DNA of 64,000 nt, taken from positions 32,001 through 96,000 of IMG/VR virus record IMGVR_UViG_3300026533_000002. One strand, written 5' to 3'. This stretch comes from a virus. The stretch's first letter is position 1. Each line of letters opens with the position of its first letter. The translations under genes and the position numbers were made by a program. Positions 9,282-62,179 of the stretch are shown piece by piece. The notes beneath the pieces are model-generated. The model was not told where the DNA came from and did no database searches. It worked only from the letters and a program-made list of their open reading frames with translations.

Positions 9282-9284
9282 TTA

Positions 9285-9458: not shown

Positions 9459-9476
9459 TTGTTTTCCTTTTGGTTT

Positions 9477-16996: not shown

Positions 16997-17890
16997 TTAA
17001 TTTAAAGATGTTAATATTGTATCTTGTAACCTACTTATAGGCATACTATTATCCCAGAAGTCATTTATACTATATATCATGTCAATTATATAAGCCTTAT
17101 CAGCTCCTAGCTCCTTAGCATGTTGTATAGCTCCTAACATCATATTATTACCTTCTCCATTCTTAGCATCATAAGCATAGCCAAATGTAGTAAAAGGAGA
17201 TTGAAGTAACTTAGAAGCTTCTTCTTTACCTATTACTACTTTCTCTTCTGCTTGTATAGCTAACTTCATTCTAGCCATTTTAAGGTGGGTAGAAGGGTCT
17301 AACTTAGTCTTACCTAATACAGAGTATACATCTCTACCTTCATAGCCGTATATGACTTGTGAGGCAGCTAATTCATCAGCACTAATACCTAATGAATCTC
17401 CAATACTTTTAATAAATAACTTCCACTCTAGAGGCTCTACATCTATTACTCTGTCTAGCTCTATTAGTATCCTATATTTAAACCTATTATTCTTATCAGA
17501 AGTAGTAGCTATATGATGATTAATGTTCCTAAGAACAGAGTGTGTGCTTTCTATAGGTATAGTTGTATTGTCTACATCTAAACAAACCCAAGAAGCTTTA
17601 TTATTAGTATTGAATTTACCCCTAACTCTACCCCAAGCATTAGGATGTTTATCTTTATTATAAACAGCACCTTCTTCGACTGACTTGTATTTAAAAGGAT
17701 TAAACCCATAATCATGGCTTAGTAGTAATCCTAAATCCTCAAAGCTCTTCTCTTCGTATTGAAAACCATATACAGCATTAAAAGCAGTACTTTGCTTTAA
17801 CTTACTTATGTAGTCTTTATGCTTATTATCAGCTATAGCTTGTTGTATCCTAGAGTTATCCACTTCTAAGAAGGATACTCCATGTAACAT
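16997..17890 (-). CDS. putative AEP-type primase / prim-pol
   Basis: LDVD, HHIATTS, KYRILIEL; helical C-terminal domain; coupled to helicase gene. Confidence 0.6.
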   Translation of the reverse strand: MLHGVSFLEVDNSRIQQAIADNKHKDYISKLKQSTAFNAVYGFQYEEKSFEDLGLLLSHDYGFNPFKYKSVEEGAVYNKDKHPNAWGRVRGKFNTNNKASWVCLDVDNTTIPIESTHSVLRNINHHIATTSDKNNRFKYRILIELDRVIDVEPLEWKLFIKSIGDSLGISADELAASQVIYGYEGRDVYSVLGKTKLDPSTHLKMARMKLAIQAEEKVVIGKEEASKLLQSPFTTFGYAYDAKNGEGNNMMLGAIQHAKELGADKAYIIDMIYSINDFWDNSMPISRLQDTILTSLN

Positions 17891-21699: not shown

Positions 21700-22019
21700 T
21701 ACTTAGCCTTAACAGCTCTGTACCTAGTACCTTGATACATAATACTTTTACTAGATTTTACTATAGGAGTATTGAAATCCTTCTCAGCTTTTAACTTCTT
21801 AATACGCTTTATATTAGCTTTTAAAGTATTAGGATGTTGATCTCTCTGTAATCCTTCCTTAGCTGCCCATTGTCTTACTGTTGAAGTAGATACTCCTCTA
21901 GTAAGGCCTATCTCTCTAGCAGTCATCTTAGGCTTACCTTTTCTAGTAGCTTTCCAATCTTTGATAGTTGCTTGTTTAACTTCTTCTGAGAATCTACTTC
22001 CATTCATTATTGTTTTCAT
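21699..22019 (-). CDS. helix-turn-helix protein
   Basis: AREIGLTRGVSTSTVRQW. Confidence 0.65.
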   Translation of the reverse strand: MKTIMNGSRFSEEVKQATIKDWKATRKGKPKMTAREIGLTRGVSTSTVRQWAAKEGLQRDQHPNTLKANIKRIKKLKAEKDFNTPIVKSSKSIMYQGTRYRAVKAK

Positions 22020-22041
22020 TATTATCCTTTATAATTGTTAT

Positions 22042-23079
22042 TTACCACTTATACTCTACCATCTCTATCAATAAAGTATCTAAGGTCTTTTTATCTGGTT
22101 CACTAGGTAGCTTAGAACGTGACAGTTCTATGTCAATAGCATCTAATACACTCTCTACTTTATCCACTACTGAAGATAAGTCATGTTTACCTTCTTTTAT
22201 CTCTTTAATATAAGATGCTTCAGCTAAAGGGAATACTATAAACTCATTAGTTAGAAGTTCTAATGCCTCACTAGCAATCCTATAACTATGAGATAAAGCC
22301 TTAAAATCAGTCTTAGAAGGTGTGTTAGCTATAGTCTTAGTTCTATTACCAAACTGTCTATATTGATATAAACACTTATCAGAGAAGTACTCTAATGTTA
22401 CTGTACCTAGGAATAGTTTACCTAGTACAGATATATACTCTCTATTACCTTCATATGTGTCTCTATTAGCTTTAGCCATCACAAACTTAATATACTTAAA
22501 GTCATTATCTTTTATAAGTTGTTTCAGGTCATCGTATCTAGTCTCTAGCTTATCTTTATGGTCAGTGCCATAATTAACTCTAAAGTTATTAATAAGAGTG
22601 TCCAGTTCTTTATACCTAGCACCTTTAATTCCAAACTTCTTTGTTTGTCCTAGAGCATAACCTATAAAGCTCTTCATACTACTGTTAAGAAAGTCTTTAT
22701 AGTTTCTACGGATAGAAGCTGTGAACACTATATCCTCGTACATAATAGTATCTGGTCTCCACATACTAAATAATAGATCTATAGCACCAGTCTCTGATTT
22801 AGATAACTGACTAAAGAATCTATGAATAGACATTAGACTAAAGTCAATGTCATCTTCACCATTCTTATCTGTTGTATTATTACTGTTAGATGAGTAGTGG
22901 TCTACTGAGTCAGCTAATAGTAATGACCTCTTACTAGGTATAAACACACCTTTAAAATCAGAGTCACTAGTAGGAGAATCAGTGCCATATAACTTAGATC
23001 CTGTATAACTAACATACACTACCTTATTACCAGTAAGTCTCTCAAACTCCTCTATCTTTTGCACTACTAAATTCTTCAC
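22042..23079 (-). CDS. RlaP-like Pol-beta-superfamily nucleotidyltransferase
   Basis: GSKLYGT-x-x-x-x-SDSDFKGVF, GYA-x-x-Q, KALSH-x-x-R. Confidence 0.85.
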   Translation of the reverse strand: MKNLVVQKIEEFERLTGNKVVYVSYTGSKLYGTDSPTSDSDFKGVFIPSKRSLLLADSVDHYSSNSNNTTDKNGEDDIDFSLMSIHRFFSQLSKSETGAIDLLFSMWRPDTIMYEDIVFTASIRRNYKDFLNSSMKSFIGYALGQTKKFGIKGARYKELDTLINNFRVNYGTDHKDKLETRYDDLKQLIKDNDFKYIKFVMAKANRDTYEGNREYISVLGKLFLGTVTLEYFSDKCLYQYRQFGNRTKTIANTPSKTDFKALSHSYRIASEALELLTNEFIVFPLAEASYIKEIKEGKHDLSSVVDKVESVLDAIDIELSRSKLPSEPDKKTLDTLLIEMVEYKW

Positions 23080-24253
23080 TTACAATCCTTATATGTTCTC
23101 TATGAACATGTTGTTTAATAGCATCATTAGAAGGTCTAACCTCTAAAGAATCTAACCACCTCTTAGGTGAGTAACTTTTCATTCTAGATATAGCAGATGT
23201 AAACATAATCTCATCTTTAGAATCAAAAGTACGTTTATCTACTGTTGAGTCTCTGCCCATTACATCAGCATTAGCAAACCTTAATAGGTCAATTATAGAC
23301 TCATTAGTAAACTTCTTTAAGAGTATTACTTTTCTACTATCTCTATTAGAGTGTATAAGAAATATCCTAATATGGTTACTAATTATAAGTAATACATCAT
23401 TAGATAGTTTAGAAGGGAGCTTTAAAGACTTTAACTCTGACTCTATCAACTCACTCTTTTCATGCCCATGTGCACTACCTTTGGCAGCATACAGCAGAGG
23501 CTTTCCAATATCATGGTAAATAGCAGCTAACTTTAAAGTAGTACTATCTACTAAATCTAATACTCTCATACTATGCTCATACACGGACTTCTCTTGATGG
23601 TAGGCACTATCTTCTACACACTTAGTCATTAAGTAGATCTTAGGAAATATAACATCTAGTACTCCTAAATCTTTTAATGTATCAAAGAATATTCTAGAGT
23701 TAGGTAAAGCTAATGCTTTCATTAACTCCATTGTAACTCTTTCCTGTACTAACCCTTCTAGACAATGCTTCATTGTGAGAACTAATTTCTTAGTCTCTTC
23801 AGCAATAGTAAAGTCAGGTAGCATAGTCTTAAATCTGGCTAACCTTAGTACCCTAACCGGGTCTTCTTTGAAAGCTTCAGAAGTATGTCTTAGTACTTTA
23901 GCTTTAATATCATCGTAACCGTTGTAAGGATCTATAAGAATACCATCTTCAGATAACGCTATTGAGTTCATAGTTAAATCTCTTCTTAGTAAATCATCCT
24001 CTATACTAATATCTTCTACATCTACAGCAAAGTCTGTATACCCTCTACCTGTTGACTTCTCTGATCTAGCTAAAGCTATTTCGTTACCATTACCATCTAA
24101 GAACACTGGGAAACTATTGCCTACTTTCTTATGAGTAGGGAACTGTTTCATGTAAGATTCTACATTGTAACCTGTAACTACATAATCTACATCAGAAGGA
24201 GGTCTGTCTAAGATTGTATCTCTAACATACCCTCCTACTGTGTACTTAACCAT
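23042..24253 (-). CDS. cca: CCA-adding tRNA nucleotidyltransferase with HD domain
   Basis: VGGYVRD, DVD, ALAR-x-E, DLLRRDLT-x-N, EDPVRVLR-x-ARF, ER, H...HDIGK. Confidence 0.9.
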   Translation of the reverse strand: MVKYTVGGYVRDTILDRPPSDVDYVVTGYNVESYMKQFPTHKKVGNSFPVFLDGNGNEIALARSEKSTGRGYTDFAVDVEDISIEDDLLRRDLTMNSIALSEDGILIDPYNGYDDIKAKVLRHTSEAFKEDPVRVLRLARFKTMLPDFTIAEETKKLVLTMKHCLEGLVQERVTMELMKALALPNSRIFFDTLKDLGVLDVIFPKIYLMTKCVEDSAYHQEKSVYEHSMRVLDLVDSTTLKLAAIYHDIGKPLLYAAKGSAHGHEKSELIESELKSLKLPSKLSNDVLLIISNHIRIFLIHSNRDSRKVILLKKFTNESIIDLLRFANADVMGRDSTVDKRTFDSKDEIMFTSAISRMKSYSPKRWLDSLEVRPSNDAIKQHVHREHIRIVSEEFSSAKDRGV

Positions 24254-25370
24254 TACAGTTTTGTACTACAGAATCAGCTAAAGTAGAAGCCATAGTTAGC
24301 GCTTGATCTGTCATAGTAAGTATCTCTTCACTTCCACTTGTTACTGATAAACTAGCCATATGGTTAAGTAACCTATGAGCTTGAGCTTCTACACTATTAC
24401 TCTCAGGCAAGTCATATAACTCTGTTATTTCTTTAGCTGTAACTGCAGGCTCAATAGTTGAAGTTCCATCAGTTAATCTAAAGTACGTTTCACCAAACAT
24501 AGAATCCATAGCTTCAATAACTAAGCCATTTCTGAACTCTGTACCAATTTCCAACTTAACTAGAGAAAACCTAGAAGTAAACTCATCAATAGCTAGCTTT
24601 TGTTTGAACCCAGAAGAGTACATTACATTAGTACTATTAACAGCATCTACATGATATAATATACCGTTATGAGAGGCCCATACTTGCCCTTCACGGACTT
24701 CTATCTCTTCAGACGACTCATTACCTACCTCAGGCTCTTCTAGCTCTCTAGACTCATCTGTGTGCATTTCAGCAGGTGTTGTGTCGGTAAAGTCATAAGT
24801 ATTATCAACTAAGTCACTGTAATGTAGGATATTCTCTAGTATTAGTAAACTAACACCTCTTACCTTAAAATTACATACTCTACCATCAATCTCACTAGCA
24901 TCAATAGTTTTAGGTATAGTAACTCTGTAAGACTCTTTACTAGGTAACATAGTAAGGTACATAGACTTAGTCTTAACGTTATGATTAGCTACTACTACTT
25001 CTGCAGTAAACTCTTTAGGTAAATCTTTAATATTAGTTACAGTAGCTTTAGAAGGAGTCTTACCAACTTCAACTTCTCCACTATTGTCAACATGTTCACC
25101 CAATAAGATTAGTTGATTAACATTGTACTCATGGTTATAAAGTATGGCTACTGAGTAAGTCTTACCTATCTCTAGCTCTTCGTTCTTCCAAGAAGAGTTA
25201 TTAGGCTTATTAACAGTTACTGTAGTTAAGGCTCCATCGACAGCCACTGTTAAAGTCAGTGTGTACTGAGTACCATAGTTAGTAGTTACTTCGTCTATAT
25301 CAATTAGATTAATTCTAAAGTTCTCTTCACCAATAAGTTCTTTTAATTCAGTTATTTTTGTTACGTGCAT
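24246..25370 (-). CDS. hypothetical beta-rich multidomain protein
   Basis: 374-aa ORF with AAGGA RBS; no recognised motif. Confidence 0.6.
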   Translation of the reverse strand: MHVTKITELKELIGEENFRINLIDIDEVTTNYGTQYTLTLTVAVDGALTTVTVNKPNNSSWKNEELEIGKTYSVAILYNHEYNVNQLILLGEHVDNSGEVEVGKTPSKATVTNIKDLPKEFTAEVVVANHNVKTKSMYLTMLPSKESYRVTIPKTIDASEIDGRVCNFKVRGVSLLILENILHYSDLVDNTYDFTDTTPAEMHTDESRELEEPEVGNESSEEIEVREGQVWASHNGILYHVDAVNSTNVMYSSGFKQKLAIDEFTSRFSLVKLEIGTEFRNGLVIEAMDSMFGETYFRLTDGTSTIEPAVTAKEITELYDLPESNSVEAQAHRLLNHMASLSVTSGSEEILTMTDQALTMASTLADSVVQNCNG

Positions 25371-25398
25371 TGCTTATCCTTTTATTTTAATATAGCTA

Positions 25399-26211
25399 CT
25401 AAGGAGTACCTAGTAGCTTTACATAGTTATTGTCTGGAAGAAACTTCCTACTAATACTTAGCTTCTTATATGTTTTAACTTTACCATCTGGCAAGAACTT
25501 AGGATCAAATATACTAGTTAATTTAGTATGTAAGTCTAACTTCTCAGCTAATAAGTCATTGTTTAACTCATTAGCTTTATCAATATCAATATAGAAACCA
25601 AAGTGTGTCTGTTCTTGTATAATAGCAGCTGTTTCATGTTCTATTTCAACTACTTTATCTAGCGGAAAGTTATCTTGCTCTAGTAAGAATAATAAGAAGT
25701 TTACAGCTAAGTCAGTATCTCTGTTACAGTAGATAGCCATCTCCTCAGTAAGTCCTGAGAAGTCTTCAAACTCAATCTTACTATCTCCTCCCATTCTCTC
25801 ACCAAAAGCTTTAAGAGAGTACTTTCCCCATAAGCTTTTATCTAATCCTAATCCTGGATCTATAGACATTAAATAATCTTTAGAGAATATAATCTTAGAT
25901 AGAATGAGAGTATCTAATGGTCTAGGTTTTAACTTAATACCTGTTACATTTTCAATAACGGGAACATCAAACCCTACACCATTATGAAATGACATATAAT
26001 CAGCTGTGTTAATTAAAGCTACAGCTTCACCTATACTACCTTTAGAGTATGGAGTCCAGACATTAGTGTATACCTCAGCTAATGTAGGCTTACCATTAAT
26101 AATCATAGCAACAGAAATACAGTATATATCATCTATAAATGATAACCCTTCCTTAGGTATGAGTTGAGTTTCAATATCTAGAACAGCTACAGTAGCGTTA
26201 CTTATATCCAT
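25399..26211 (-). CDS. family A DNA polymerase, N-terminal 3'-5' exonuclease half
   Basis: LDIET (ExoI), HNG-x-x-FD-x-P (ExoII), DTL-x-x-S, SLKAFG-x-R, YC-x-x-D (ExoIII), EH...Q-x-x-x-GF thumb start. Confidence 0.9.
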   Translation of the reverse strand: MDISNATVAVLDIETQLIPKEGLSFIDDIYCISVAMIINGKPTLAEVYTNVWTPYSKGSIGEAVALINTADYMSFHNGVGFDVPVIENVTGIKLKPRPLDTLILSKIIFSKDYLMSIDPGLGLDKSLWGKYSLKAFGERMGGDSKIEFEDFSGLTEEMAIYCNRDTDLAVNFLLFLLEQDNFPLDKVVEIEHETAAIIQEQTHFGFYIDIDKANELNNDLLAEKLDLHTKLTSIFDPKFLPDGKVKTYKKLSISRKFLPDNNYVKLLGTP

Positions 26212-34218: not shown

Positions 34219-35394
34219 CTAGATTATATATCTAGATACTTTACTCATTAACTCATCTGCATTAGTAAACTTATACTTAAATGCTTTAGTTAACTGAGCT
34301 TTAGTAGCTTTACTGTATAGCTTCACATCAGCCTTATTACCTAATAGTATATCTATTACTACTCTTACACCGTCTGACAGTTCATCACCATTACTAGTGT
34401 ATTGTGAGTATAAGTTACCTAATACAAATGCTACAAAGGCTTCTTCATCCTTATTAGCTTCTATTAGATCCATTAAATACACACCATCTGCAATAGTACT
34501 AATAAAGTTAACTACATAAGGGTAAGTCATAATATCAATAGTAGACATAGTAGACATATCTTTTACATCTTTATCTTTTACCATCTTATTAAAGTCAATA
34601 GCATCTATATAAGCTACATGACTATGAAAGTCTTTAGCTCTTTCTTTAGACATCTGCATACCAGCAATAGTATCTGCATTATGCAATACAAAGTCATTAG
34701 GATACATAGGTAACTCAGTAGCAATAGCAGTCCAAGCTCTAGCAGTAGCATAACCTTCTACACTAGTAGACTCTTCTTCCATTATACCTTTAGGCTTAGC
34801 TCTTAGGTATGAAGCTACACGGTAATCTAAGTTCTTACCAAAAGAGTCAAACCACCAATCAAAGTTAAACTCAACTTCTAAGATACTCATACGATTACGT
34901 ACAGCAGAGTTTATACCACCAAATCCTGCTTCTGTACTTGTATTCATAGTACCTAAGATTACAACATTATCAGGTAGTTTATAGTTACCTAACATTCTTT
35001 GTAATAGTAACTTATAGAAATAAGCTTGTAAATGAGGAGCTACCATATGAAAATCATCTAATAGTAAGATAGTATCCTTCTCTTCTGCTAAGTCCATAGT
35101 ATTAGCCATTATCTCTGGTATACTCCATTTAGTAGCATTAACATCCTCATCAATTACAGAGTACTTATTATACTTAGTGGCTTTATATTCATCAGGTAAC
35201 CCATTTAAAACCTCTATTGTAATGCTGGGAGCCGATACATCTAATAGATTCATATCTAGATTCTTAGCTATTACACTTATTGCACTAGATTTTCCAGAAC
35301 CTGGCGACCCTGCAATAAACAGTGGTGATGTGCTTTTATTAAGTAGTTGCGATTTGATGTTTGTTTCTATAATTGTTATGTCTTTATTAGTCAT
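34219..35394 (-). CDS. MoxR-like AAA+ ATPase
   Basis: GSPGSGKS, LLLDD, SAVRNR, ARAW. Confidence 0.8.
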   Translation of the reverse strand: MTNKDITIIETNIKSQLLNKSTSPLFIAGSPGSGKSSAISVIAKNLDMNLLDVSAPSITIEVLNGLPDEYKATKYNKYSVIDEDVNATKWSIPEIMANTMDLAEEKDTILLLDDFHMVAPHLQAYFYKLLLQRMLGNYKLPDNVVILGTMNTSTEAGFGGINSAVRNRMSILEVEFNFDWWFDSFGKNLDYRVASYLRAKPKGIMEEESTSVEGYATARAWTAIATELPMYPNDFVLHNADTIAGMQMSKERAKDFHSHVAYIDAIDFNKMVKDKDVKDMSTMSTIDIMTYPYVVNFISTIADGVYLMDLIEANKDEEAFVAFVLGNLYSQYTSNGDELSDGVRVVIDILLGNKADVKLYSKATKAQLTKAFKYKFTNADELMSKVSRYII

Positions 35395-35497
35395 TATTAA
35401 TCCTTTTATTTAATCTTATTATGCTGGTGTATACGTTGTTTTAAGAGGTGTATAAGCCTCTAAACTGCTAACAGGTACTATGACATACCTGAAGCAG

Positions 35498-35521
35498 TAT
35501 AATGCCTTGCAAGGCATTATA
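35498..35521. repeat. perfect 24-bp palindrome TATAATGCCTTGCAAGGCATTATA
   Basis: Read directly; intergenic. Confidence 0.9.
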
Positions 35522-35525
35522 TGGT

Positions 35526-36569
35526 CTAGATAAACTTAGATAGGTCGAATTTCTTAATAGTTTTAGTTAAGTAAACTGTGCCATGATGATTATCACTGTA
35601 TATCAGATTATTACCTTCTACATATTTTAAATCATTACTACCGAAGTACTTATTATTAAACTCGTCTTCAGCAGGGAATATCTCAATATCGTAGTTATTA
35701 TCTAATTCTAAGTTATGTATAGTTTCTAATGGTACTTCAGTTCCGTCAGTATGCAATAACTTAGTAATAGTGTAAACTTCTCTATCACCAGATGAAACAT
35801 CTATGTTCAAGTCTTCTATTAAAGTTAGGATTAACTGCTCAGGGAATCTATTAGATTCTTCTATAATAGCATCAAGTATATCGAATGTAAACATTTTAGC
35901 TGTTCTATACACATACACAATCTCATCAACTCTTTCAGACTCTAATTTAGCTTCACATACTTTACGTATTACATCTTCAGGTAGCTTACCATATTCAAAG
36001 CTATACAGCATACGTCCAGGTCTATCTTTTAGGAACTCACTGATATGTCTTTTATAGTTATCAATAACTATAGATAAGCGTTTAGACGATGCTACTCCGT
36101 CAAAGAAGGACAGTAATGCATCTTGCGTGCTATTCCCATCTCTCCCTTTATACACTTTAGCAAACTCATCAAATATTACTACCACTACACCTAAGTCATT
36201 GATAAAAGTATTGAATGAATCACCGCTATAAGACTCATTAACTAATACTACTGGAGTACCTTGAGCGATGGCCATATTAGCTACTCTTTTAGCTAACTGT
36301 GTCTTACCACTTCCACGAGTCCCTGCTAATAATACTCCTGTTGCAGCATCTCTTACATTAAATGCTTTAATGATCTTACCAGCTCTTTCTTCTGTGTTAC
36401 CGTATAGAGTAGGCTCACTAAATTTATCTTTACTTATTTCTAAGTAGTAAGTACCTGATAATGGTTCTTGACATACTGTATAAACTTTAGGAGCTAACTT
36501 AGTAACTAACCCATCCTCATTGAACTTAATTACTTTTACTATATCACCTGTTGTTGAAAATCCATGCAT
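35526..36569 (-). CDS. AAA+ ATPase
   Basis: GTRGSGKT, IFDEFAK, DRPGR. Confidence 0.85.
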   Translation of the reverse strand: MHGFSTTGDIVKVIKFNEDGLVTKLAPKVYTVCQEPLSGTYYLEISKDKFSEPTLYGNTEERAGKIIKAFNVRDAATGVLLAGTRGSGKTQLAKRVANMAIAQGTPVVLVNESYSGDSFNTFINDLGVVVVIFDEFAKVYKGRDGNSTQDALLSFFDGVASSKRLSIVIDNYKRHISEFLKDRPGRMLYSFEYGKLPEDVIRKVCEAKLESERVDEIVYVYRTAKMFTFDILDAIIEESNRFPEQLILTLIEDLNIDVSSGDREVYTITKLLHTDGTEVPLETIHNLELDNNYDIEIFPAEDEFNNKYFGSNDLKYVEGNNLIYSDNHHGTVYLTKTIKKFDLSKFI

Positions 36570-41791: not shown

Positions 41792-42511
41792 CTACTTTAT
41801 ATTATTAAGAGCCGCTCCAGGTAGTATGTCTTTATACAACTTCCTTAACTGATCAGCTTGAACAGCTCTAGCTTGTCCGTACATTTTTGAAGCTTCTTCA
41901 GCTGTATTAAAGTACCCAAGATGCTTCTTCTTACCATCAATATTTATGTATGCCACCCATTTAGCACAATCTTTACGTAAATGCACTCCGGTAAATCCAC
42001 TAGTATTATTTGAGTTACTATTAGCTAGAAAACTATTAAGCCTACCTGGTATAAATAAGCAGCTATCTGGTTGGTAGATTTTACACCCTACACCTAGAAG
42101 GTCTTTATCTAATTCAAATCCTTCAATGTAGTTAGTTTCGAACCATTTACCAAAGACTTGTAAGTTATGCCATTCTTTACACACTGTTACGTCTTTATAA
42201 GTAGGCTTCTTCTCATGATATTTAGAGTAGTACGCTCTCTCCAGCATCCCTTGCCAAGTACTATACAGTTTACAGTGATCCTTACTATTGTAATGCCCTA
42301 CTCCTACGTAACCCTTCCCAAATACCGAGGGGTTGTAAGGATTTTTCACACTTCCATTTCTAAATGCACTTGATTGAACTTCAGTTTCGTAGTTATCTAT
42401 CTTTACTAGCAGGTAATGATTTCTGCTACCTCCGTCAATACATTCACATTTATAGCCTTCGTTAGTAATAATAATTTTACCTATACTACTCCTACAGTAT
42501 TTCCTTTCCAT
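41792..42511 (-). CDS. HNH-AP2 homing endonuclease-like protein
   Basis: W-x-x-ML-x-R, V-C-x-EW, LDKD, Y-x-P-x-x-C; C-terminal NTSGFTGV...W-x-A-x-I...LGYF-x-T-x-EEA AP2 domain. Confidence 0.85.
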   Translation of the reverse strand: MERKYCRSSIGKIIITNEGYKCECIDGGSRNHYLLVKIDNYETEVQSSAFRNGSVKNPYNPSVFGKGYVGVGHYNSKDHCKLYSTWQGMLERAYYSKYHEKKPTYKDVTVCKEWHNLQVFGKWFETNYIEGFELDKDLLGVGCKIYQPDSCLFIPGRLNSFLANSNSNNTSGFTGVHLRKDCAKWVAYINIDGKKKHLGYFNTAEEASKMYGQARAVQADQLRKLYKDILPGAALNNIK

Positions 42512-42562: not shown

Positions 42563-42865
42563 TCATTTTAAATCCTCATTTATTATCTCCCGTACATTAT
42601 TAATACGAAAGTCTTCAGCTACTTTTAGATCTGGTAAGACCTTTGTAGTACTAATATCCATAGTTTGTCTAATAACTCTTTCATGGGTATTAGTTCCATC
42701 TATTCTAATCATTGATAGTAAGAATAGAACTATTACCATAATTACTGCTATAAAGTACTGGACACTTTTCTTCCACTTATACCAAATAGAAGCAATAAGT
42801 AATGCTGGTAGTACTACTGATAACAGTGTTACTATTGTCTTATAAGATACTATAACTATTTCCAT
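42563..42865 (-). CDS. membrane protein with two TM helices
   Basis: Two hydrophobic segments. Confidence 0.6.
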   Translation of the reverse strand: MEIVIVSYKTIVTLLSVVLPALLIASIWYKWKKSVQYFIAVIMVIVLFLLSMIRIDGTNTHERVIRQTMDISTTKVLPDLKVAEDFRINNVREIINEDLK

Positions 42866-42878
42866 TTAATCTTCTTAA

Positions 42879-43709
42879 TTAAGCAGCTATATATTTAGCT
42901 ACTATAGAGTTTAACAACTCTTCTTCTTCTAATGAATTATCAAGTGTAACTACTCCTTCCAGAGTATTAACTGCTTGGCCATACCCACTTTCCAACTTAT
43001 CACCATACATAACTTCATCTATCTTAAACATCAATCGTCTAAGGAATGAAGGGTATATAACTCTAGCAATAGTAGATATGTTTACATAATCATCATAACC
43101 TTTAACTACTGTACCTAAGTAGCTGTGTCTACCATCAGTAGATACATTCTTAGATATAGAAGATACTATGAGTTTAATCTTATGGCCTCTCTTCTCTAAA
43201 GCTATAACTACTGCTATTACTTTACAGAATGCATCTATAATAGTATCAGTAGATTTACTACCTGATACAGCTATATTAACATTAAGCTCATAATAGTGGT
43301 CTATATACTTCTTATTAGCCTGTAGATAACATTCTGGATCACCTTCAATAAGTTTACCTATATCAAGTTCTAGTCCTTCAACATCGTAGTGATAATCTTC
43401 TACTATCCAACTAGTTAGTAAACCTTTCTTCTTAAGATTATTTCTAATCTTATTCTCAATAGACTCAATACGAGTGTTTACTTCTACAGGAGGTTCTCCA
43501 TTTGGATACATTATTAGATCTAATGCCTCATCAAATGAGTTAGTCCCTGTAAACGAGTAGTCATTATCTTTAGAGGATGTTCTATATGTCTCATTATCTT
43601 TTACACTTAATAGGTAGCTACTTAAAGCTCTTATATTTCTAAACTCTTTTATATCAAGTTTACTAATATCTATACCTACGTCACTATACTGTTTAGTCGT
43701 AATCTCCAT
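42879..43709 (-). CDS. CobT/VWA-like partner of CobS-type ATPase
   Basis: YDVEG-x-x-x-D-x-x-x-x-x-x-GDPEC, LE-x-x-G, PSFLRR, GYG. Confidence 0.6.
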   Translation of the reverse strand: MEITTKQYSDVGIDISKLDIKEFRNIRALSSYLLSVKDNETYRTSSKDNDYSFTGTNSFDEALDLIMYPNGEPPVEVNTRIESIENKIRNNLKKKGLLTSWIVEDYHYDVEGLELDIGKLIEGDPECYLQANKKYIDHYYELNVNIAVSGSKSTDTIIDAFCKVIAVVIALEKRGHKIKLIVSSISKNVSTDGRHSYLGTVVKGYDDYVNISTIARVIYPSFLRRLMFKIDEVMYGDKLESGYGQAVNTLEGVVTLDNSLEEEELLNSIVAKYIAA

Positions 43710-44928
43710 TCTTTATCCTTTTAATTAAACCATTTACTCTAGCAATAAGTAGTAATGTACTTTCTTTAGGTGTAGAGAAATTCATAGTTGATACTACTTT
43801 ATCGTTATACTTAATTTTAAATCCATGGTACCATGAGCTAATACATCTATCAAGATTGTTAGCATCTATATTGTAGTTAGTGTATAAGTACGCTTCCAAA
43901 GATTCAGTACCTACCAATAAGTAGTAACTGTCTTCACCTGGCACTTTATAAAGTCTTACACTATTATCAATGTATTCAGTAGCATAACCTAATTCTCTAG
44001 CGTCTACTTTTAAGTTAGTACCATGTCCTTTAAAGCAATGTTTACTACCACTATCGTGGCTTGCTACTTCATATAGTCTTCCTTTATAAAGTACAGTTGC
44101 TCCTGTTTCAAACATTATCCCTCCTTTAGTAGTTTATTAACTAAAGCTACAAACTTAATCAGATTCTCCCTAGGCTTCCCTTGTACGAATTCTATAGAGT
44201 AAGTGTAGCCTTCGTACGATACTTGGAAGCTCTCATATCCTCTATATAGATTTTTATGCAAGTTATGTGAAACTAGTTTATACTTACTAGATAAGTAGCG
44301 ACTAAAATCTTCAGTGCCATACAAAGCATACCATTCATCTTCTTCACCATAAAGTCTTACAGCATCTATAAACTCTGTGTCTACTACCTCACATAGACTT
44401 CTATCAACTGCTTTTCCGTGACCAATTAAATCAAAGAATGCACCATCAGCCATACATTCAGCTTTATACAGCCTACCTATATACCTAACTACTACAGTTC
44501 CCATATTTACCTGCTTTTATATCTCTAACGATACTATTAACTTTATTTAGTAGCATACTAATATTGCCAACTACATTATTTTCCATAAAGTCTAATTTAT
44601 CATAACTATCATCTGGTAAAGTAATATTAAATCCACTGTGACCTAAAGCTATACATTCGTTTAGGTTAGGCGCATATATGTTATATTTGTTATTGATATA
44701 TGCTTCAAAATCCTCAGTACCATATAGTAGGTAGCCCTTATTACTGTCACTAAAAAAGTACCATCTCACATCATCTGTTAGGGCTAACGGAGTCTTCTGT
44801 AAATCATCTATAGGAGCAGTTAAAGCAATATGACCTTCAAACTCACATAAGTATTGGTGATTGATATTCTTTATCCTGTAAAGCCTATCTCTATAGAGGA
44901 CTGTCGACCCTATTTTAAAGAGAGACAT
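43693..44928 (-). CDS. three tandem paralogous proteins (43693-44115, 44115-44504, 44485-44928)
   Basis: Shared V-x-Y-x-x-RLY...GH...VR-x-Y...Y-x-L-x-GTE-x-x-x-x-Y...Y...NL...F...VN. Confidence 0.85.
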
Positions 44929-45768
44929 CTAATCTTCTTTAAAGTAGAACGTGTCACCCTCTGAGTAACCTTCAGGTATCTCTCCATTAGAAGTATACTC
45001 AGTACTCGTAGTATCCTCAGCAGGAACTTCTGCCTCTTCAATAGGATCAAATAACTTACTAACAATACCGTTTAATTGACTACCATCTACTTCTCTAAAC
45101 ATAGTAGACTCAGCAGCTTCTTTATTATCTATACCAATATCTACTAATGCTTTATAAGATAGAGCATCTCTCATAGATAAGTTCTCGTAACCTAATTTAA
45201 ACATCTCTTTACGAGCAGATTTAACTATGTTATCTAACTCTTCATTACCAATGATACTAGTCTCTAACTCTTCATCTAATCCCCACTTAATAACTAAGAA
45301 CCTAGTTAGAAATGATGTATCTAACTTACTTCTAGAAGAGTAACCACTATCAGTTGAACCATAAGTATTAGCAGTAGCTATAAGTACAAAGTCTTTATGT
45401 CTCTTAACCATTCTACCTGCAAATACTCCATGTGAACCTGCAATAGCAGCATTAAGTGCAAGTAATGTATTCTTATTACCAGCATCACATTCTTCTAATA
45501 CGAATACTCCACCTTCTTGGTAGAACTTACCTAACAAACTATCAGATATCTGACCATCTGGAGTTCTAAAACCTAATAGCCCAGATACAGTAGTCTGCTG
45601 TGTCATTGGTAAATAACCAAACTTAAGCCCTAACTCTCCTGCTAATATCTCTGCTGATTTAGATTTACTACTTCCAGCTTCTCCTATTAACATAATAGGT
45701 AATCTTAAACCTTCTGCATTTCTAGCCTCTGTATACTTTACTAACTTATTATATTCTTTATGCTGCAT
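44929..45768 (-). CDS. CobS-like (MoxR-clade) AAA+ ATPase
   Basis: GEAGSSKS, GGVFVLEECD, H-x-DF-x-x-IATANT-x-G, LD-x-x-x-L-x-RF, SMR. Confidence 0.8.
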   Translation of the reverse strand: MQHKEYNKLVKYTEARNAEGLRLPIMLIGEAGSSKSKSAEILAGELGLKFGYLPMTQQTTVSGLLGFRTPDGQISDSLLGKFYQEGGVFVLEECDAGNKNTLLALNAAIAGSHGVFAGRMVKRHKDFVLIATANTYGSTDSGYSSRSKLDTSFLTRFLVIKWGLDEELETSIIGNEELDNIVKSARKEMFKLGYENLSMRDALSYKALVDIGIDNKEAAESTMFREVDGSQLNGIVSKLFDPIEEAEVPAEDTTSTEYTSNGEIPEGYSEGDTFYFKED

Positions 45769-45779
45769 TGTTTATCCTT

Positions 45780-46091
45780 TTATTTAATGTAAATTTTTAC
45801 TATATGGTTTAGCATCTCAACCACTGCTTTTACTGATTCTTTAAGAGTTGGTTTACTAGTACTGTAACTATGCAATATTAAATAGCCTGGTACATATCTG
45901 TCAGTTGATAATAGTAAGTTACTATTTGAACCCATATACAGATATGTCTTCTCAGAGTTAATTGCATTAGACAAAGCTACTTACAGGCCTCTAATACCTG
46001 AGACTGCTTTATGAAGATGAATACTTTTACCGTTACATATAATAAACATCTCAAAGTTGTCTCCTAGTCTATAGGTCACAGCTTCAGGCAT
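45780..46091 (-). pseudogene. 103-codon array member with in-frame TAA at 45981-45983
   Basis: MPEAVTYRL...GIRGL*VALSNAIN...MLNHIVKIYIK in one frame; same length as neighbours. Confidence 0.65.
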
Positions 46092-46395
46092 TATTTATCC
46101 TTTTATGTTCTTTTATCATTCTATTAAGTAACTTAATTATTTCTACTGCTCTAACTTTTATATCCTTACCTGCTAAAGGGTACTCTATAGCTCCTAAAAA
46201 ATACTTATGCCTTACCTCACTATTATTTGCCGATACTGTGTAGTATATAGCATTACAAAAAGAATTGAGAGCTGTGTCAGTCACAGATAGTCCTTGTATA
46301 AAGTCTAAATGCTTAGAGTCTTCTATTAGAATGTCTCCACCAGTAACTAAACCCTTTTTACCATTAAAGTATGGTTTAAGTCTTACTGCTTCCAT
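46084..46395 (-). CDS. 103-aa probable array member
   Basis: VRL start, LLNRMIKEHK C-terminal helix. Confidence 0.6.
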   Translation of the reverse strand: MEAVRLKPYFNGKKGLVTGGDILIEDSKHLDFIQGLSVTDTALNSFCNAIYYTVSANNSEVRHKYFLGAIEYPLAGKDIKVRAVEIIKLLNRMIKEHKRINNA

Positions 46396-46440
46396 ACTGA
46401 TCCTTTTATTTAATCTTATAGACCCTAAGGCCTATAGCAG

Positions 46441-46869
46441 TTATAGTAAAGTATTACCTTCGGAGTTTACATTACTTAACCAGTAAGTAGCTCCTAGTAA
46501 TGTACTATTAGTTGAAATCTCTCTAGCTAACTCTGCATTAAGAGAATAGTTTTCATCAACTGCAGAACAGTTAACTACACATTTACGATGTTCTCTACCA
46601 ATGATAACTAGTAATGACTCTTCATCTAGTACAGACATAGGCATACTACCTTCAACAGTATCATACTTAGCATCTTTATTAGCTTTTAAAGCTCCTTTAC
46701 TAGTACCTTTATAGGCTGCTACAGCACCTTTAATAGCTTTAGTAATACTAGCAATAGCTTCATCAATATTCTTACCTTTACGGGCTTTACTGATAGCTTT
46801 ATTAAGCTGTACTGATAGTCTTACATTCTTTTTACTTGACTCTACATTTGATTTGATAGTTGGTTCCAT
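46441..46869 (-). CDS. basic hypothetical protein
   Basis: 142 aa, K/A-rich N-terminus, AAAGGA RBS. Confidence 0.65.
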   Translation of the reverse strand: MEPTIKSNVESSKKNVRLSVQLNKAISKARKGKNIDEAIASITKAIKGAVAAYKGTSKGALKANKDAKYDTVEGSMPMSVLDEESLLVIIGREHRKCVVNCSAVDENYSLNAELAREISTNSTLLGATYWLSNVNSEGNTLL

Positions 46870-46935
46870 TTTATTTCCTTTTGGTTAATTTAATACTGAG
46901 TTTCCTCACCTTAGTAGTGGTTGTTTCCTCTTACA

Positions 46936-48445
46936 TCATTTAGCTGGGAGTTGTTTTATATGTCTCATAATGCTATTCAATCTATAGACTATTGCTTTAG
47001 GACCATCTACTGCAAATATCTCATACTCGTCATAACAAGCCATATCATTATTAGTTAAGACTTCTACAAACTCTATAATTCTAGGAGTATCCTTAGAATG
47101 AAGTATGAATCTAATGTCACTAAGCTCAGCATCACAATGTAAAGTTACGTCATATACTTCTTTTAGGTAACCTTTGAGTCCTTGCACATAATTCGTTAAA
47201 TGTACTACTATTCTACCGCTACTATTGCTTTTTGATAATCTTACCATTACCTATGACCCCAATAGGCTGCTATCTTTCTGGTAGCTAAGTTTAAGGCTTT
47301 TACATGGTCTTTTATGCCTATTATCGTATAAGTGTTGTGTATGCGGTAGCGGAAAATAGTATCAGAGAATTTATTAACTACTTCTATACGTCTATCCTTC
47401 GGATCTACTAACAGATAACCTTGCTCATCCCATTCCATTTCTTTATGAGAATATTCTATATTAAAGTGTTCTCTTAGATACTCAGCAATAAGTGTCCTTT
47501 TCCCTGTTACTAGTACATAAGGTGTTCCCCAAGTACCTCTCATTACCTGAATCACCATGACTCCTTAATCTTTCTAATAGATGCATTTAATGCATGTGCT
47601 AGGTCGCTATAGGAGCAAACTGTATATGTGTTATAAGAGCTATAGCTATGACTCATTTCAGATAGCTTGTTAGTAATCTCTATTCTTTTATCCCTAGCAC
47701 TGACAGCTAGGAATACGAATTCATTCCAATTAGTACTATGTCTGTAGTTGCAATTTACTGTATGCTCTACATTTAAGTACCAATCTAAGTTTACTGTCTT
47801 ACCACCTTCTACAACATAAGGCATACCTAAAGGACCTTTAATTAGTCGCAACATTTTAACTCCTTATCAGTAATATGCTTAATAACCTTACCTAACTCTT
47901 CTAAGCTATAAGACTGTTCTAAATAGTCTATATCAAGTAACTTAAGTTCTTCTAGAGTCAATGATTGGTAACACTTAATAAGCTTCTTACTTTTATTGTA
48001 AGTAACTAAGTGATGTTTAGTATAGTCTAGTGTAGGTAGCCCTATAATCCTAATACCATAATTAATTAATAGGTAGATTGGTAAAGGCATTCCATCACTA
48101 ACCACAATACCTCTAAGGCTTAATCTATAAGGTAGCATGGAACTTAGTATCTTTATTCACTCTTATAGCTTTGTTTAAACATTTTGTAAACTCTACAATC
48201 CCTTCAAACGAGCAGCTCCCTAAATAAGGAATTGAAGATTTAAAAGGTGAGTACTCTACAAGTACCATATTTACACCTTCAAGCCTTACATAACCTTTAG
48301 TATGCTGATTAAAATGTCTGCCATTAGTTAAATTAATACCTAAGTAAGCATTAAAGTAATCTTCAAGGCTTATAGTGATAGGTGCAGACGGTTCTTTTAG
48401 TTTTACTAGTAGTCTGTGTTGTCTATTTAATATTAACTCTAACAT
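46936..48445 (-). CDS. five tandem ~100-aa paralog-like ORFs (46936-47247, 47247-47558, 47552-47854, 47842-48138, 48125-48445)
   Basis: Same size; Y-[LF] at about residue 22-30 and terminal L-[NG]-x-x-[IMT]-[RK] helix; two share G-x-x-G-x-PYV, D-[KR]-RIE-x-x-NK-x-S, NTYT. Confidence 0.7.
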
Positions 48446-54646: not shown

Positions 54647-55036
54647 TTATATCTTTAATTTCTTAAGAGCTTTAACCATCTTCATCTGACTAACAACATA
54701 TTCTAATGCTTTAATATTAAACTCTTTGTAGTCAGATTCCATTGTAGCTTTTACTTGATTTATTCCAAAAGCACATGCAACGACATTACCTTTAATATAT
54801 CCTTGCTTATTGTCAATTCTATCTAGTGTAAAGCTATTAAATGATAAGTCTCCATACACTCTACCTCTATATAAAGGTATCTTAGAATAGAAACATCTCT
54901 TAGTATTCTGTAACCTTTTATAGTCTCCTAGAGTAAGGCTAAACTCTATACCTTTCTCTTTAGCATACTTTATCTTAGCTAAGTATCTAATAGCTACAAC
55001 TTCATCTGTTACTATATAATCTGTTAACTTAGCCAT
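54647..55036 (-). CDS. HNH-like endonuclease
   Basis: CFYS...TLDRIDNKQGYIKGNVVAC-x-x-x-x-N-x-x-K. Confidence 0.75.
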   Translation of the reverse strand: MAKLTDYIVTDEVVAIRYLAKIKYAKEKGIEFSLTLGDYKRLQNTKRCFYSKIPLYRGRVYGDLSFNSFTLDRIDNKQGYIKGNVVACAFGINQVKATMESDYKEFNIKALEYVVSQMKMVKALKKLKI

Positions 55037-61744: not shown

Positions 61745-62179
61745 TTATACGTCTTCTTTCTTTATAATAAGTACATCATGTAGATGCTCTGGATATAAAG
61801 CTATTCTAATTGATAAGTGATCAACAGGTACATCATTAAGATAAGGCTTATATTTAACTAAGGTATATGTATATAATACTTCTAAGTCAGACTTACTAGT
61901 AACTTCATATATCCTAGCGTTATGCCATACAAACTTATCTTCATACTTAGCTTTAAACTCTTTCAAGTCCTTATCAATACTAATGCTTTTACCTACGAAT
62001 ACAATCTTCTTATGACTATATATAAAGTAAAGGCATTGCTTAGGTCTAGGCTTCTCCTTATAGTATAAAGTAGTAAGGAATCCTTTCCTTTGAGCTATTA
62101 AATACTTAGGGTAATTCTTAGCTTTAAACTCTTCTTTAGAGCTATACTGAGAGGCTATCTCTTTTAGTTCTGTTAACAC
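61745..62179 (-). CDS. GIY-YIG-like nuclease-domain protein
   Basis: CLYFIY...VFVGKS...E...KP-x-LN; N-terminal A-x-x-Y-x-S-x-x-EF...Y-x-x-A-x-x-x-G module. Confidence 0.6.
   Translation of the reverse strand: MLTELKEIASQYSSKEEFKAKNYPKYLIAQRKGFLTTLYYKEKPRPKQCLYFIYSHKKIVFVGKSISIDKDLKEFKAKYEDKFVWHNARIYEVTSKSDLEVLYTYTLVKYKPYLNDVPVDHLSIRIALYPEHLHDVLIIKKEDV

Follow-up and report, generated by a model that had tools for sequence, protein, structure and literature searches.

What are the small, diverged genes that crowd in and upstream of an AAA+ ATPase gene and its partner in an uncultivated phage of ~119 kb, and do they work with that pair? The phage is virus record IMGVR_UViG_3300026533_000002 of IMG/VR; the window analysed here is the 64,000-nt stretch at positions 32,001-96,000 of the record, and genome-wide comparisons take in all 155 ORFs. 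The family genes, here termed B and D, and the ATPase pair all lie on the minus strand (Table 1), the pair in a nucleotide and auxiliary-metabolism region. The genes look expressed. Shine-Dalgarno-like sequences precede most of them, most stop and start codons overlap, and the three B genes fill the space between ATPase and partner with spacings of 0 nt or overlaps of 1-20 nt that keep the operon intact.

Table 1. Features of the locus (coordinates refer to the window).
Feature	Position	Strand	Evidence or remark
Small membrane protein, 100 aa	42563..42865	-	ORF after DUF7192
DUF7192 protein, AAA+ partner, 276 aa	42879..43709	-	Pfam PF23822, phrog_1909
B1, paralog, 140 aa	43693..44115	-	blastp to B2, B3; tail VNGLIK
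B2, paralog, 129 aa	44115..44504	-	blastp, alignment; tail VNKLLK
B3, paralog, 147 aa	44485..44928	-	N-terminal SH3/KOW/Tudor-like barrel and C-terminal alpha/beta domain
CobS/MoxR-clade AAA+ ATPase, 279 aa	44929..45768	-	AAA_5, phrog_249
D0*, D-type cassette, 103 codons, in-frame TAA	45780..46091	-	tail LNHIVK
D1, 103 aa	46084..46395	-	tail LNRMIK
Dx, 142 aa as called	46441..46869	-	separate family; homologs in L020, L033
D2, 103 aa	46936..47247	-	tail LNSIMR; D3/D4 profile match
D3, 103 aa	47247..47558	-	pairs with D4
D4, 100 aa	47552..47854	-	pairs with D3; tail LNASIR
D5, 98 aa, weak or uncertain member	47842..48138	-	lacks LN..I[RK] tail
D6, 106 aa	48125..48445	-	tail LNKAIR

A preliminary description of this DNA had proposed that three proteins of 129-147 aa between the ATPase and its partner are paralogs. 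Their mutual blastp matches bear this out (E values from 3e-10 to 1e-18: 9e-19 for B1-B3, 2e-13 for B1-B2 and 3e-10 for the third pair), and the motifs that it named are invariant columns of the B alignment (R15-L16-Y17, G32-H33, V54-R55-x-Y57, Y66-x-L68-x-G70-T71-E72, N88-L89 and V130-N131). It also listed seven upstream ORFs of 98-106 codons. Six are intact (98-106 aa), but the seventh, most likely D0*, is interrupted by an in-frame TAA at 45983-45981; D0* has its own RBS and ATG. D3 and D4 are, as had been stated, the only plainly alignable D pair (blastp E 1.6e-18), and BLAST detects no other pair of small paralogs among the 155 genome ORFs.

The proposed duplicated repertoire thus begins with two certain paralog groups, and a tail motif and pairwise similarity scores tie in most of the rest. 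Nine of the 10 B and D genes, D0* counted, end in a helix with the motif LN..I[RK]. In its loose form ([LVIFM]N..[ILVMAT][RK] within the last 32 residues) the motif occurs in 10 of the 155 ORFs, all at positions 42563-48445, and in 0 of 142 ORFs outside this block of the same AT-rich genome. When a strict pattern was derived from B1-3 and D3/D4 alone, it retrieved three of six held-out candidates and none of the 144 remaining ORFs (Fisher p = 3.6e-5). The terminal LNxxIR/K helix noted earlier is therefore real and non-random. As background, 22 other phage loci yield the motif in 9 of 329 ORFs and contain no arrays. An extra 111-aa ORF present only in L019, a near-identical relative, provides an independent case, with the strict motif LNQIVR. 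The small membrane protein does not belong to the family; its loose match, INEDLK, fails the strict pattern, and the gene is a conserved tail of the module.

Pairwise comparisons point the same way. Smith-Waterman z-scores average 1.09 within the cluster (41 pairs) versus 0.14 (220 pairs) and 0.12 (231 pairs) in same-genome controls (Mann-Whitney p = 1.2e-5 and 5e-6), and D6, at 1.54, has the top mean z of the non-trivial ORFs. Alignments are colinear over 65 columns for B2 66-127 with D6 30-95, and over 72 columns for D0* with D1 (z 4.4); the D3/D4 profile finds D2 as its best non-self match among the 155 ORFs (E 0.0025). An unlikely alternative is that no single ten-member family exists, with B1-3 and D3/D4 as separate groups, the remainder unrelated ORFans, and the motif a product of convergence or of AT-rich, Lys/Asn-rich composition. 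Profile-profile tests lean toward this alternative. In hhalign, B1-3 against D3/D4 reaches a probability of 0.3%, and six D against six B alignments 1.9% (P 0.025), a match confined to the tail helix; the B profile HMM ranks no D ORF first and places unrelated ORFs above every D ORF. D5 has no motif and lies within noise (mean z 0.59, rank 19 of 81), although its pairwise z values reach 4.3 to B2 and 3.3 to D2, and the tail motif was defined after the sequences had been inspected. The hold-out result, the empty remainder of the genome, the new strict-motif member in L019, the colinear alignments, the z-score shift and the placing of D2 nonetheless argue against unrelated ORFs. The resemblance suggested between D ORFs and the last ~90 aa of B is thus supported statistically, through z-scores and colinear alignments rather than profiles, and falls short of proof. 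We conclude that this is a real multigene family of about ten diverged copies, confined to one phage lineage.

Common to the members is an alpha/beta domain of ~90-100 aa closing with the long, basic, amphipathic LN..I[RK] helix; in the three B copies an SH3/KOW-like barrel precedes it at the N terminus. The two structure models differ in mid-domain, D3 having more strands, a point in favor of separate families. In both, the tail helix is modelled with confidence as integral to the fold, which makes a conserved structural element likelier than a free docking peptide. The barrel and basic helix also raise the idea that B and D proteins are small nucleic-acid-binding regulators that bind RNA or DNA and tune phage or host expression, unrelated to the ATPase. 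This appears very improbable to us, because all fold matches for family proteins are below the stated noise level of the tool, B proteins are neutral to acidic, and SH3-like barrels are also generic protein-binding modules.

The ATPase matches Pfam AAA_5 (E 1.3e-10), phrog_249 (E 1.4e-29, profile positions 111-362 of 380) and the AAA domains of midasin in the PDB (E 7e-16), and across 11 sequences the columns of Walker A, sensor and MVKRHKDF do not vary. It lacks the N-terminal extension of its relatives and the first ~110 residues of the phrog_249 profile. The partner had been called VWA-like, a label that finds no support in its sequence. It is a DUF7192 protein (PF23822, E 8e-21; phrog_1909, E 1.2e-17), its nearest Atlas clusters are DUF7192 (score 0.97), 7 of 7 homologs are likewise DUF7192, and neither a VWA family match nor a conserved DxSxS was found in it or its homologs. 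The DUF7192 C terminus, ELLNSIVAKYIAA, resembles the family tail, and this ending (ELLN[SK]IVA) is kept in two diverged lineages, L020 and L033.

ATPase and DUF7192 genes adjoin in all 12 other lineages in which both genes were examinable, among them L020, L033 and Kayvirus. DUF7192 directly follows the ATPase in 8 of 8 distinct viral-contig lineages with both genes examinable (nine loci, of which two come from the same contig pair; L015 lacked a DUF7192 match). Three B genes inside the pair occur only in the present lineage. The earlier proposal of linkage between the family and the pair is supported in L020 and L033, the only two further lineages available, in which the ATPase is 56% and 54% identical. 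Each has one longer B-like gene, a long SH3-repeat protein with a B-like C-terminal ~90 aa, just upstream of Dx, AAA+ and DUF7192. The B profile ranks this protein first of 352 ORFs (E 0.007), hhalign relates it to B with P 2e-4 and a probability of 46%, and the L020 and L033 versions also match one another (E 5e-5); we regard the B-like assignment, made from sequence comparison, as only moderately secure. Dx does not belong to B/D. It forms a conserved family of its own, linked to this module and interleaved with D ORFs, 57% identical in L020 and 53% in L033, with 13 homologs at 41-58% identity in a collection of 5.8 billion proteins, a conserved ENYSLNAELAR motif and no Pfam or PHROG match. 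The small membrane protein is 98% identical in L019 and 35% in L020. The family is embedded in a conserved module of B-like gene, Dx, CobS/MoxR-type AAA+, DUF7192 and small membrane protein.

The earlier label of fast-diverging holds for the family only relative to its neighbors. Compared with L019, B genes are 74-85% identical (B1 74%, dN/dS 0.23; B2 78%, dN/dS 0.29) and D1 79%, whereas DUF7192, NAMPT and a 655-aa gene are 99-100% identical. D1 is 78-79% identical in L018 and L019 (dN/dS 0.29-0.40), D2 is 100% identical in L019 and 87% in L018, D5 is 97% identical in L019, and D6 is 90% identical there, with a dN/dS of 0.75 on few changes. Gene-wide positive selection does not account for this divergence: dN/dS for B1-3 and D1 against close relatives is 0.22-0.40, indicating purifying selection (DUF7192, 0.015 against L019). 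Part of the divergence reflects a recombination mosaic: dS against L019 is 0.22-0.60 in the block from D1 to B1, compared with ~0 on the left of this block and 0.06-0.14 on the right. Copy number also changes. D0* is flanked by a duplicated ATAAAAGGATAAA(T/C)AATG junction and is missing in L018, L019 and run X2, of which one contig joins 45764 to 46088; L019 holds an extra cassette not present here. D3/D4 are frameshifted in L019 and X2, and an indel in L019 puts the D4 tail out of frame. The family thus evolves by birth and death. Cassettes come and go as whole units, with breakpoints exactly at duplicated RBS-ATG junctions, and individual copies bear a nonsense or frameshift mutation in some of the strains.

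Such turnover would also be expected if B and D were independent host-takeover or counter-defence proteins, each binding a different host target alone, in a recombination-prone island that happens to hold AAA+/DUF7192, with turnover reflecting an arms race. We consider this explanation somewhat less likely than the accessory role favored below. It fits small ORFans (the family lacks homologs in a set of 1.84 billion representative proteins), divergence far above that of neighboring genes, cassettes gained, lost or broken between near-identical strains, a location in the early/middle replication and auxiliary-gene region, and a neighboring slot that is variable too, with an HNH gene here and an SPFH gene in L019. 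It fits less well with whole-gene dN/dS well below 1, with B genes placed precisely inside an otherwise invariant pair and translationally coupled to it, and with a B-like gene that stays beside the module in two lineages whose ATPases are only 54-56% identical.

Large phages have lineage-specific multigene families and hypervariable accessory islands, and these share with the present locus tandem, fast-evolving small ORFans and copy-number turnover between close strains. Here, however, copies are interleaved with a conserved two-gene ATPase module, one set inside it, and a related longer gene keeps its linkage to the module in diverged relatives. The same gene order is seen in Kayvirus (Staphylococcus phage K-like), with AAA+ (32% identical), a ~280-aa (281-aa) partner and a membrane protein of ~95-100 aa; in phiIPLA-RODI a "membrane protein" follows the AAA+/281-aa pair. 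The Kayvirus module has no B/D genes and no Dx, its 372-aa ATPase bears an N-terminal extension, and its record annotates no function for it. MoxR-VWA remodelling pairs include RavA-ViaA, CbbQ-CbbO and NorQ-NorD, in which, as here, a small MoxR/AAA_5-clade ATPase is encoded beside an adaptor-like partner. Counter-invader systems of the MoxR-vWA type have also been reported (PMC12839542). Unlike those systems, which are without multiple small paralogs, the present locus has no VWA/MIDAS signature and no peptidase or iSTAND component, and no PADLOC model scored above noise. Pairs of the cobS/cobT type, a CobS-like ATPase with an adjacent partner, have been noted in cyanophages, haloarchaeal viruses and others (PMC8651126). 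As in those pairs, an AAA_5/CobS-like ATPase (phrog_249) stands here beside a partner gene in a large phage, within a nucleotide and auxiliary-metabolism region. The partner here is, however, DUF7192 (276 aa) and not a CobT with recognisable VWA/MIDAS, the ATPase is shorter at its N terminus, and the pair is split by three paralogs with a small-gene array upstream, a layout for which, as previously suggested, the open-access text yields no described counterpart.

A phage-encoded MoxR-type ATPase, bas54_0063 of Bas54, is required to overcome the defence system DS-28, and the accessible part of that report mentions no paralog array with it (PMC13716836). The likeness is one of type, and Escherichia phages are absent from the ten commonest of the 18 genera among the 405 tblastn matches of our ATPase. 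The phenotype makes a counter-defence role for the present module plausible.

We tentatively favor an accessory role for B and D proteins in the AAA+/DUF7192 machine; that they are unlinked genes of host takeover or counter-defence ranks second. Accessory genes of phages often insert between unrelated genes, so position by itself is weak evidence for such a role, and the B-like linkage is seen in three lineages only. The adaptor idea, put forward earlier beside inhibition of host defence proteins, draws on MoxR-VWA pairs and on the notion that the partner supplies the target. In the accessory role, B and D proteins would be co-translated with the machine, most likely as interchangeable target-recognition or client subunits. 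None of the more distant AAA+/DUF7192 phages examined has the B/D family, and the 1.84 billion representative proteins include no B homolog, so the machine does not need the family; B and D would therefore modulate its specificity and not form its core. Through interchangeable subunits, the machine may act on different host proteins in early or middle infection.

The genes under study form a tightly packed run on the minus strand (see the table). D6 to D2, ORFs of about 100 aa upstream of the AAA+ ATPase gene, overlap successively by 1–14 nt, and three paralogs of 129–147 aa, B1 to B3, stand between the ATPase gene and that of its partner, a DUF7192 protein. AAGGA- or GGAG-type sequences lie 5′ of most ORFs in the block. 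No Rfam or tRNA match was found in the region, and promoter and terminator scans gave no excess over shuffled expectation. The surrounding long minus-strand block holds replication, nucleotide and auxiliary genes (ribonucleotide reductase, helicase, primase, DNA polymerase pieces, tRNA nucleotidyltransferase, NAMPT and ribose-phosphate pyrophosphokinase). The virus record, of which the window covers bases 32001–96000, has 118,976 bases in total and a GC content of ∼33%, and is complete by CheckV; a search of 50,697 phage records revealed no close relative at the DNA level. Primase (phrog_2135) and DNA polymerase (phrog_17) are each represented by two ORFs (window 16997–19293 and 20368–26211), with a nucleotidyltransferase, the tRNA nucleotidyltransferase and a 374-aa ORF between the two polymerase pieces. 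About 8 kb further downstream, and transcribed in the same direction, are two more ATPase genes (phrog_1297 and phrog_2376; window 34219–36569), and a copy of the phrog_1297 ATPase, 37% identical, is found near the module in the diverged relative L033 (14706–15360).

Genes of the AAA+/DUF7192 region in transcription order (F and NAMPT are placed last), with amino-acid identity and Nei-Gojobori dN/dS for the window versus the near-identical relative L019 unless stated
Gene	Position	Strand	Junction	Identity	dN/dS
655-aa phrog_1735 gene		-		99.4%	undefined (dS = 0)
144-aa phrog_2018 gene		-			
50-aa ORF		-			
112-aa ORF (E)		-		100%	undefined (no substitutions)
D6	48125-48445	-	overlaps D5	90%	0.75 (few changes)
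D5	47842-48138	-	overlaps D4	97%	undefined (dS = 0)
D4	47552-47854	-	overlaps D3		
D3	47247-47558	-	overlaps D2		
D2	46936-47247	-	66-nt gap to Dx	100%	undefined (no substitutions)
Dx	46441-46869	-	45-nt gap to D1		
D1	46084-46395	-	then D0*	79%	0.40 (0.29 vs L018)
D0*	45780-46091	-	then AAA+ gene		
AAA+ ATPase	44929-45768	-	stop abuts B3	93%	0.21 (0.05 vs L018)
B3	44485-44928	-	overlaps B2 by 20 nt	85%	0.22
B2	44115-44504	-	overlaps B1 by 1 nt	78%	0.29
B1	43693-44115	-	overlaps DUF7192 by 17 nt	74%	0.23
DUF7192	42879-43709	-	after B1	99.6%	0.015
100-aa membrane protein	42563-42865	-	then HNH endonuclease, end of block		
F				100%	undefined (no substitutions)
NAMPT				99.4%	0.019

The ATPase matches PF07728 (AAA_5) with 41.9 bits against a curated cut-off of 22 (E 1.3e-10), and its best solved relatives in the PDB are Midasin AAA domains (E 7e-16). 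Residues G29, G32, K35, E93, D95, N134, R156 and R200 are invariant among 11 aligned homologs, as are the Walker A, sensor and MVKRHKDF columns; Walker B reads EE in the window and DE in the relatives. By its profile match and its Walker, sensor and arginine residues, the protein is assigned to the AAA_5/MoxR-CobS-Midasin clade. The full-length CobS architecture is absent, in that relatives of 322–457 aa carry N-terminal extensions and the window ATPase has none. A search for those extensions among the small ORFs, as split-off N-terminal domains, yielded a best blastp E of 0.14 against nine longer AAA+ homologs, and this origin was rejected. The match to phrog_249, “porphyrin biosynthesis” (E 1.4e-29), covers only profile positions 111–362 of 380, and none of 18 proteins scanned around the pair matches a CobT or CobN family. 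The AAA+/DUF7192 pair routinely carries the “porphyrin biosynthesis” label without evidence.

The partner had been described as VWA-like, a label that its sequence does not support because VWA families give no match to it (E <= 0.1) or to its homologs (7/7, E <= 1) and because the alignment of seven homologs has VNIxASxxxS instead of the DxSxS MIDAS motif, without the conserved Asp. It matches DUF7192 (PF23822), a viral family, with 75 bits (curated cut-off 27, E 8e-21), as do 7/7 homologs; phrog_1909 is also matched, and Atlas clusters score 0.97 as DUF7192. The only invariant columns in the seven homologs are M1, G112, D116, G123, P125, R224, Y243 and G244. PDB sequence searches with the protein and its profile gave no match, and no paper on DUF7192 was found in open-access full text.

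CobS-like AAA+/DUF7192 pairs are widespread among large phages (405 records), such as Staphylococcus Kayvirus, Listeria phages, cyanophages and mycobacteriophages; Kayvirus phiIPLA-RODI encodes, in this order, an AAA ATPase, a 281-aa hypothetical protein and a membrane protein. Ten distant viral-contig loci encode an AAA+ protein 32–37% identical to the window ATPase, and DUF7192 directly follows the ATPase in all eight distinct lineages in which both genes are examinable (nine loci, two from one contig pair; L015, which has no DUF7192 hit, is outside this count). Metagenome scanning with the ATPase as query yielded L018 (2.6 kb, AAA+ 98% identical), L019 (12.8 kb, 93%) and L020 (11.6 kb, 56%). 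The two genes are also adjacent in L020 and in L033 (AAA+ 54% identical), and genes between them are found only in the window's own clade (window, L018 and L019). The earlier remark that no system with this layout had been described agrees with our search of open-access full text, where no small-paralog array with a phage CobS/MoxR-type AAA+ pair is described. Known anti-phage defence components were sought with PADLOC at E <= 0.01, and 15 of 16 proteins had no match; the single exception is the 100-aa membrane protein (E 0.0087).

B1–B3 are unmistakable paralogs (mutual blastp E 9e-19, 2e-13 and 3e-10), and each motif listed for them in the preliminary description is an invariant column of their alignment. 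Among the upstream ORFs only D3 and D4 were said to be plainly alignable, and BLAST across the 155 ORFs of the genome concurs: the two are clear paralogs (E 1.6e-18), and no other small paralog pair was detected. A seventh upstream ORF of ∼100 codons, claimed at the same time, is best explained by D0*, but its frame is broken: an ATG with a good RBS opens 36 codons, an in-frame TAA follows at 45983–45981, and 66 more codons lead to the family tail.

This tail provides the most widely shared feature. A loose motif, [LVIFM]N..[ILVMAT][RK], sought within the C-terminal 32 residues, is carried by 10 of the 155 ORFs, all within 42563–48445 (B1–B3, D0*, D1, D2, D3, D4, D6 and the membrane protein). 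Across 22 other phage loci, 9 of 329 ORFs have it, never in arrays. Because the loose motif was defined after the sequences had been inspected, a strict pattern, [LV]N..[ILVT][KR], was re-derived from the five sure members only. It is present in three of six held-out candidates (D0*, D1 and D6) versus 0/144 other ORFs (Fisher p = 3.6e-5); the D2 tail, LNSIMR, is one conservative position off. A 111-aa ORF unique to L019 also matches it with its C-terminal VKVLNQIVRDFKLKG. Smith-Waterman z values against shuffles average 1.09 within the cluster (41 non-trivial pairs); the mean is 0.14 when cluster members are paired with controls (220 pairs) and 0.12 when same-genome controls are paired with each other (231 pairs). 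The Mann-Whitney p values for this shift, 1.2e-5 and 5e-6, are optimistic because pairs are not independent. Colinear alignments extend across most of the domain for B2 66–127 with D6 30–95 and for D0* 27–99 with D1 27–95, and B1 63–84 aligns with D3 13–35 at the hairpin and first helix.

Profile comparisons of the ORFs, a kind of check envisaged in the preliminary description, gave signals both for and against a single family. The D3/D4 profile has D2 as its best non-self match (E 0.0025, 155 ORFs), but hhalign of the B profile with D3/D4 gave a probability of 0.3%, the six-D versus six-B alignment gave P 0.025 confined to the tail helix, and the B HMM scores unrelated ORFs above every D ORF. 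The two top hits of the B HMM (B-profile E 0.007–0.018) were discarded: 54647–55036 for short, off-register aligned stretches, and 61745–62179 for its low score (8.7 bits, E 0.014). On sequence grounds, B1–B3, D0*, D1, D2, D3, D4 and D6 probably constitute one family. Membership of D5, which has no tail motif and whose mean z ranks 19th of 81 small ORFs, is uncertain.

Structure prediction for D3 from the six-D alignment (pLDDT 83, pTM 0.75) places strands at 5–7, 13–17 and 20–23, a helix at 24–32, strands at 35–38, 46–52 and 57–61, a short helix, a strand at 75–80 and a helix at 82–101. Between this model and that of B3, predicted as an SH3/KOW/Tudor-like barrel with a C-terminal alpha/beta domain, the sequence-anchored hairpin, first helix and long last helix correspond; the middle differs. 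In both models the tail helix packs with confidence, which makes a role as conserved structural core more likely for the tail motif than one as a free docking peptide. PDB and BFVD structure searches with the two models found no significant match.

Sequence searches confine the family to this phage group. An exhaustive HMMER search of 1.84 billion representative proteins with the B profile found only the three window proteins. Apart from proteins of the phage itself, a word-index search with D3 and D4 found only one 63-aa fragment (83% identity). There was no tblastn match for B3, a B-family pattern scan of viral contigs gave 23 pattern matches of which 0 were confirmed, and none of the small ORFs rose above noise in Pfam, PHROGs, NCBIfam or PADLOC. 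For B3 the best ESM Atlas score, 0.77, is under the lead threshold; the best B-profile match among PDB sequences, a RecA fusion (E 0.01), was judged noise.

Dx, a conserved 142-aa gene interleaved with the array and no member of the family, has 13 homologs at 41–58% identity with a conserved ENYSLNAELAR motif and no match in Pfam or PHROG. The family motif reads ENYSLNAELARAIATN. Homologs begin MRLS, and the start of window Dx is therefore probably the GTG of codon 16 (VRLS). A Dx-based scan of genome contigs found no match, and DUF7192-based and Dx-based scans of viral contigs found only the one contig behind L033/L034. In all three lineages seen, including L020 and L033, Dx lies just upstream of the AAA+ gene. 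Directly 5′ of it in L020 and L033 is a long SH3-like-repeat protein (323 and 589 aa, respectively). These two proteins match each other (E 5e-5), and B hallmarks appear in the final ∼90 residues of each: LVDGTIEFRVYLKEKYMID, followed by the tail SVIKALNKIITS (L020) or AVLKYINTVIEGFS (L033). Comparison of the B alignment with these C-termini by hhalign gave P 2e-4 and a probability of 46%, and a six-sequence B profile run on 352 ORFs from 22 loci ranks the L020 protein first (E 0.007) and the L033 protein third (E 0.59); a word-index search with the L020 protein found itself only. With moderate confidence, the long proteins appear B-like by homology. Thus, a B-like gene seems linked to Dx-AAA+-DUF7192 in 3/3 lineages with Dx, a small number.

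Just upstream of the long protein, both diverged relatives encode a reverse transcriptase (L020 1355–2341, RVT_1 E 4e-14; L033 4212–5120, 1e-23), so that their order is reverse transcriptase, SH3-repeat B-like protein, Dx, AAA+, DUF7192. A diversity-generating retroelement was considered for this reason and rejected: RVT_1 has no match in the window's genome, and no TR/VR-like direct repeat was found. Stretches without long ORFs in L020, before the AAA+ gene (4130–4849) and after DUF7192 (6570–7470), contain repeated 32–49-nt elements around GAAC(C/T)AGTTTCGTTAT, ∼100–200 nt apart, which are possible promoters or regulatory sites of the phage.

L019 is syntenic with the window from the 655-aa gene to NAMPT, and dS between the two is ∼0 from the 655-aa gene to D2, 0.22–0.60 from D1 to B1, and 0.06–0.14 from DUF7192 to NAMPT. 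From this pattern and the dN/dS values we conclude that the B and D genes are real and constrained. Some of the divergence of these genes stems from a recombination block in which the ATPase also lies. The fast divergence proposed earlier holds insofar as amino-acid change is tolerated in B and D genes far above the level of their neighbours, but the window versus L018/L019 comparisons give no evidence of gene-wide positive selection.

Members of the array are also gained and lost. Neither L018 nor L019 has D0*, and in both of them D1 overlaps the start of the ATPase gene. The window cassette sits exactly at the ATPase ATG, flanked by a duplicated ATAAAAGGATAAA(T/C)AATG junction, and the form without it is confirmed by a contig from an independent sequencing run, X2, that joins 45764 to 46088. 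L019 in turn has an extra cassette directly behind the RBS used by D1 in the window. Broken copies are present as well: D0* carries its nonsense codon in the window, and in L019 indels put the D4 tail out of frame and shift the D3 reading frame from roughly codon 11 onwards. These D3/D4 indels recur in the separate X2 assembly, although sequencing error could still account for them because X2 may come from L019's sample. A Logan contig from run X1, the likely source sample, has one base deleted at window 45794, near the D0* 3′ end, which would alter the last codons. An X2 contig skips 190 bases in B1 (window 43785–43976), either because of a deletion variant or because the segment is too diverged for alignment at 80% likeness. 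Cassette gain and loss at exact junctions offers a clean example of phages building and pruning small-gene repertoires.

The conserved AAA+/DUF7192 module therefore harbors a lineage-specific, constrained small-protein family that evolves by birth and death and has one shared domain. Phage small-gene families are of a kind already known; the wiring into a MoxR-type module is what is unusual here. We tentatively infer, at somewhat less than even confidence, that the B and D proteins are putative accessory or target-recognition factors of the AAA+/DUF7192 machine. This reading draws on the precise, translationally coupled insertion of B genes inside an otherwise invariant pair, on the retention of a B-like gene beside the module in diverged relatives, on the resemblance of the family tail to the conserved DUF7192 C-terminus (ELLN[SK]IVA), and on a recent tie to counter-defence, in that a phage MoxR ATPase is necessary to overcome a host defence system according to one report (PMC13716836). 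Co-folding of the AAA+ and DUF7192 proteins with B3 as partner, run without controls, scored 0.05 and 0.00 (mark, 0.32) and weighs neither for nor against binding.

The main rival is that B and D proteins serve host takeover or counter-defence on their own, with their genes in a recombination hot spot, an explanation only a little less likely than the accessory-factor reading. It gains from variability of the neighbouring slot: after the membrane protein the window has an HNH endonuclease (41792–42511, phrog_953), and L019 has a 292-aa SPFH/Band_7 protein (9206–10084), which looks like an accessory-gene swap. Were the genes unrelated to the ATPase, they would amount to an ORFan family of the ordinary sort, carried in an accessory island by a phage that is uncultivated.

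A stronger form of the target-recognition reading, speculative and rather improbable, is that the small proteins are swappable target adaptors for a phage MoxR-type unfoldase, a modular ATP-driven counter-defence of a kind not yet described. Each cassette would recognise a different host protein, such as a defence factor, and use the shared helical domain to deliver it to the AAA+/DUF7192 machine. By shuffling cassettes at conserved RBS-ATG junctions, the phage would be able to direct a single remodelling engine to new targets. A private small-protein family expanded inside and beside this widespread pair is a natural handle on the machine's targets and, if the paralogs bind the machine, their other surfaces would point to what those targets are.
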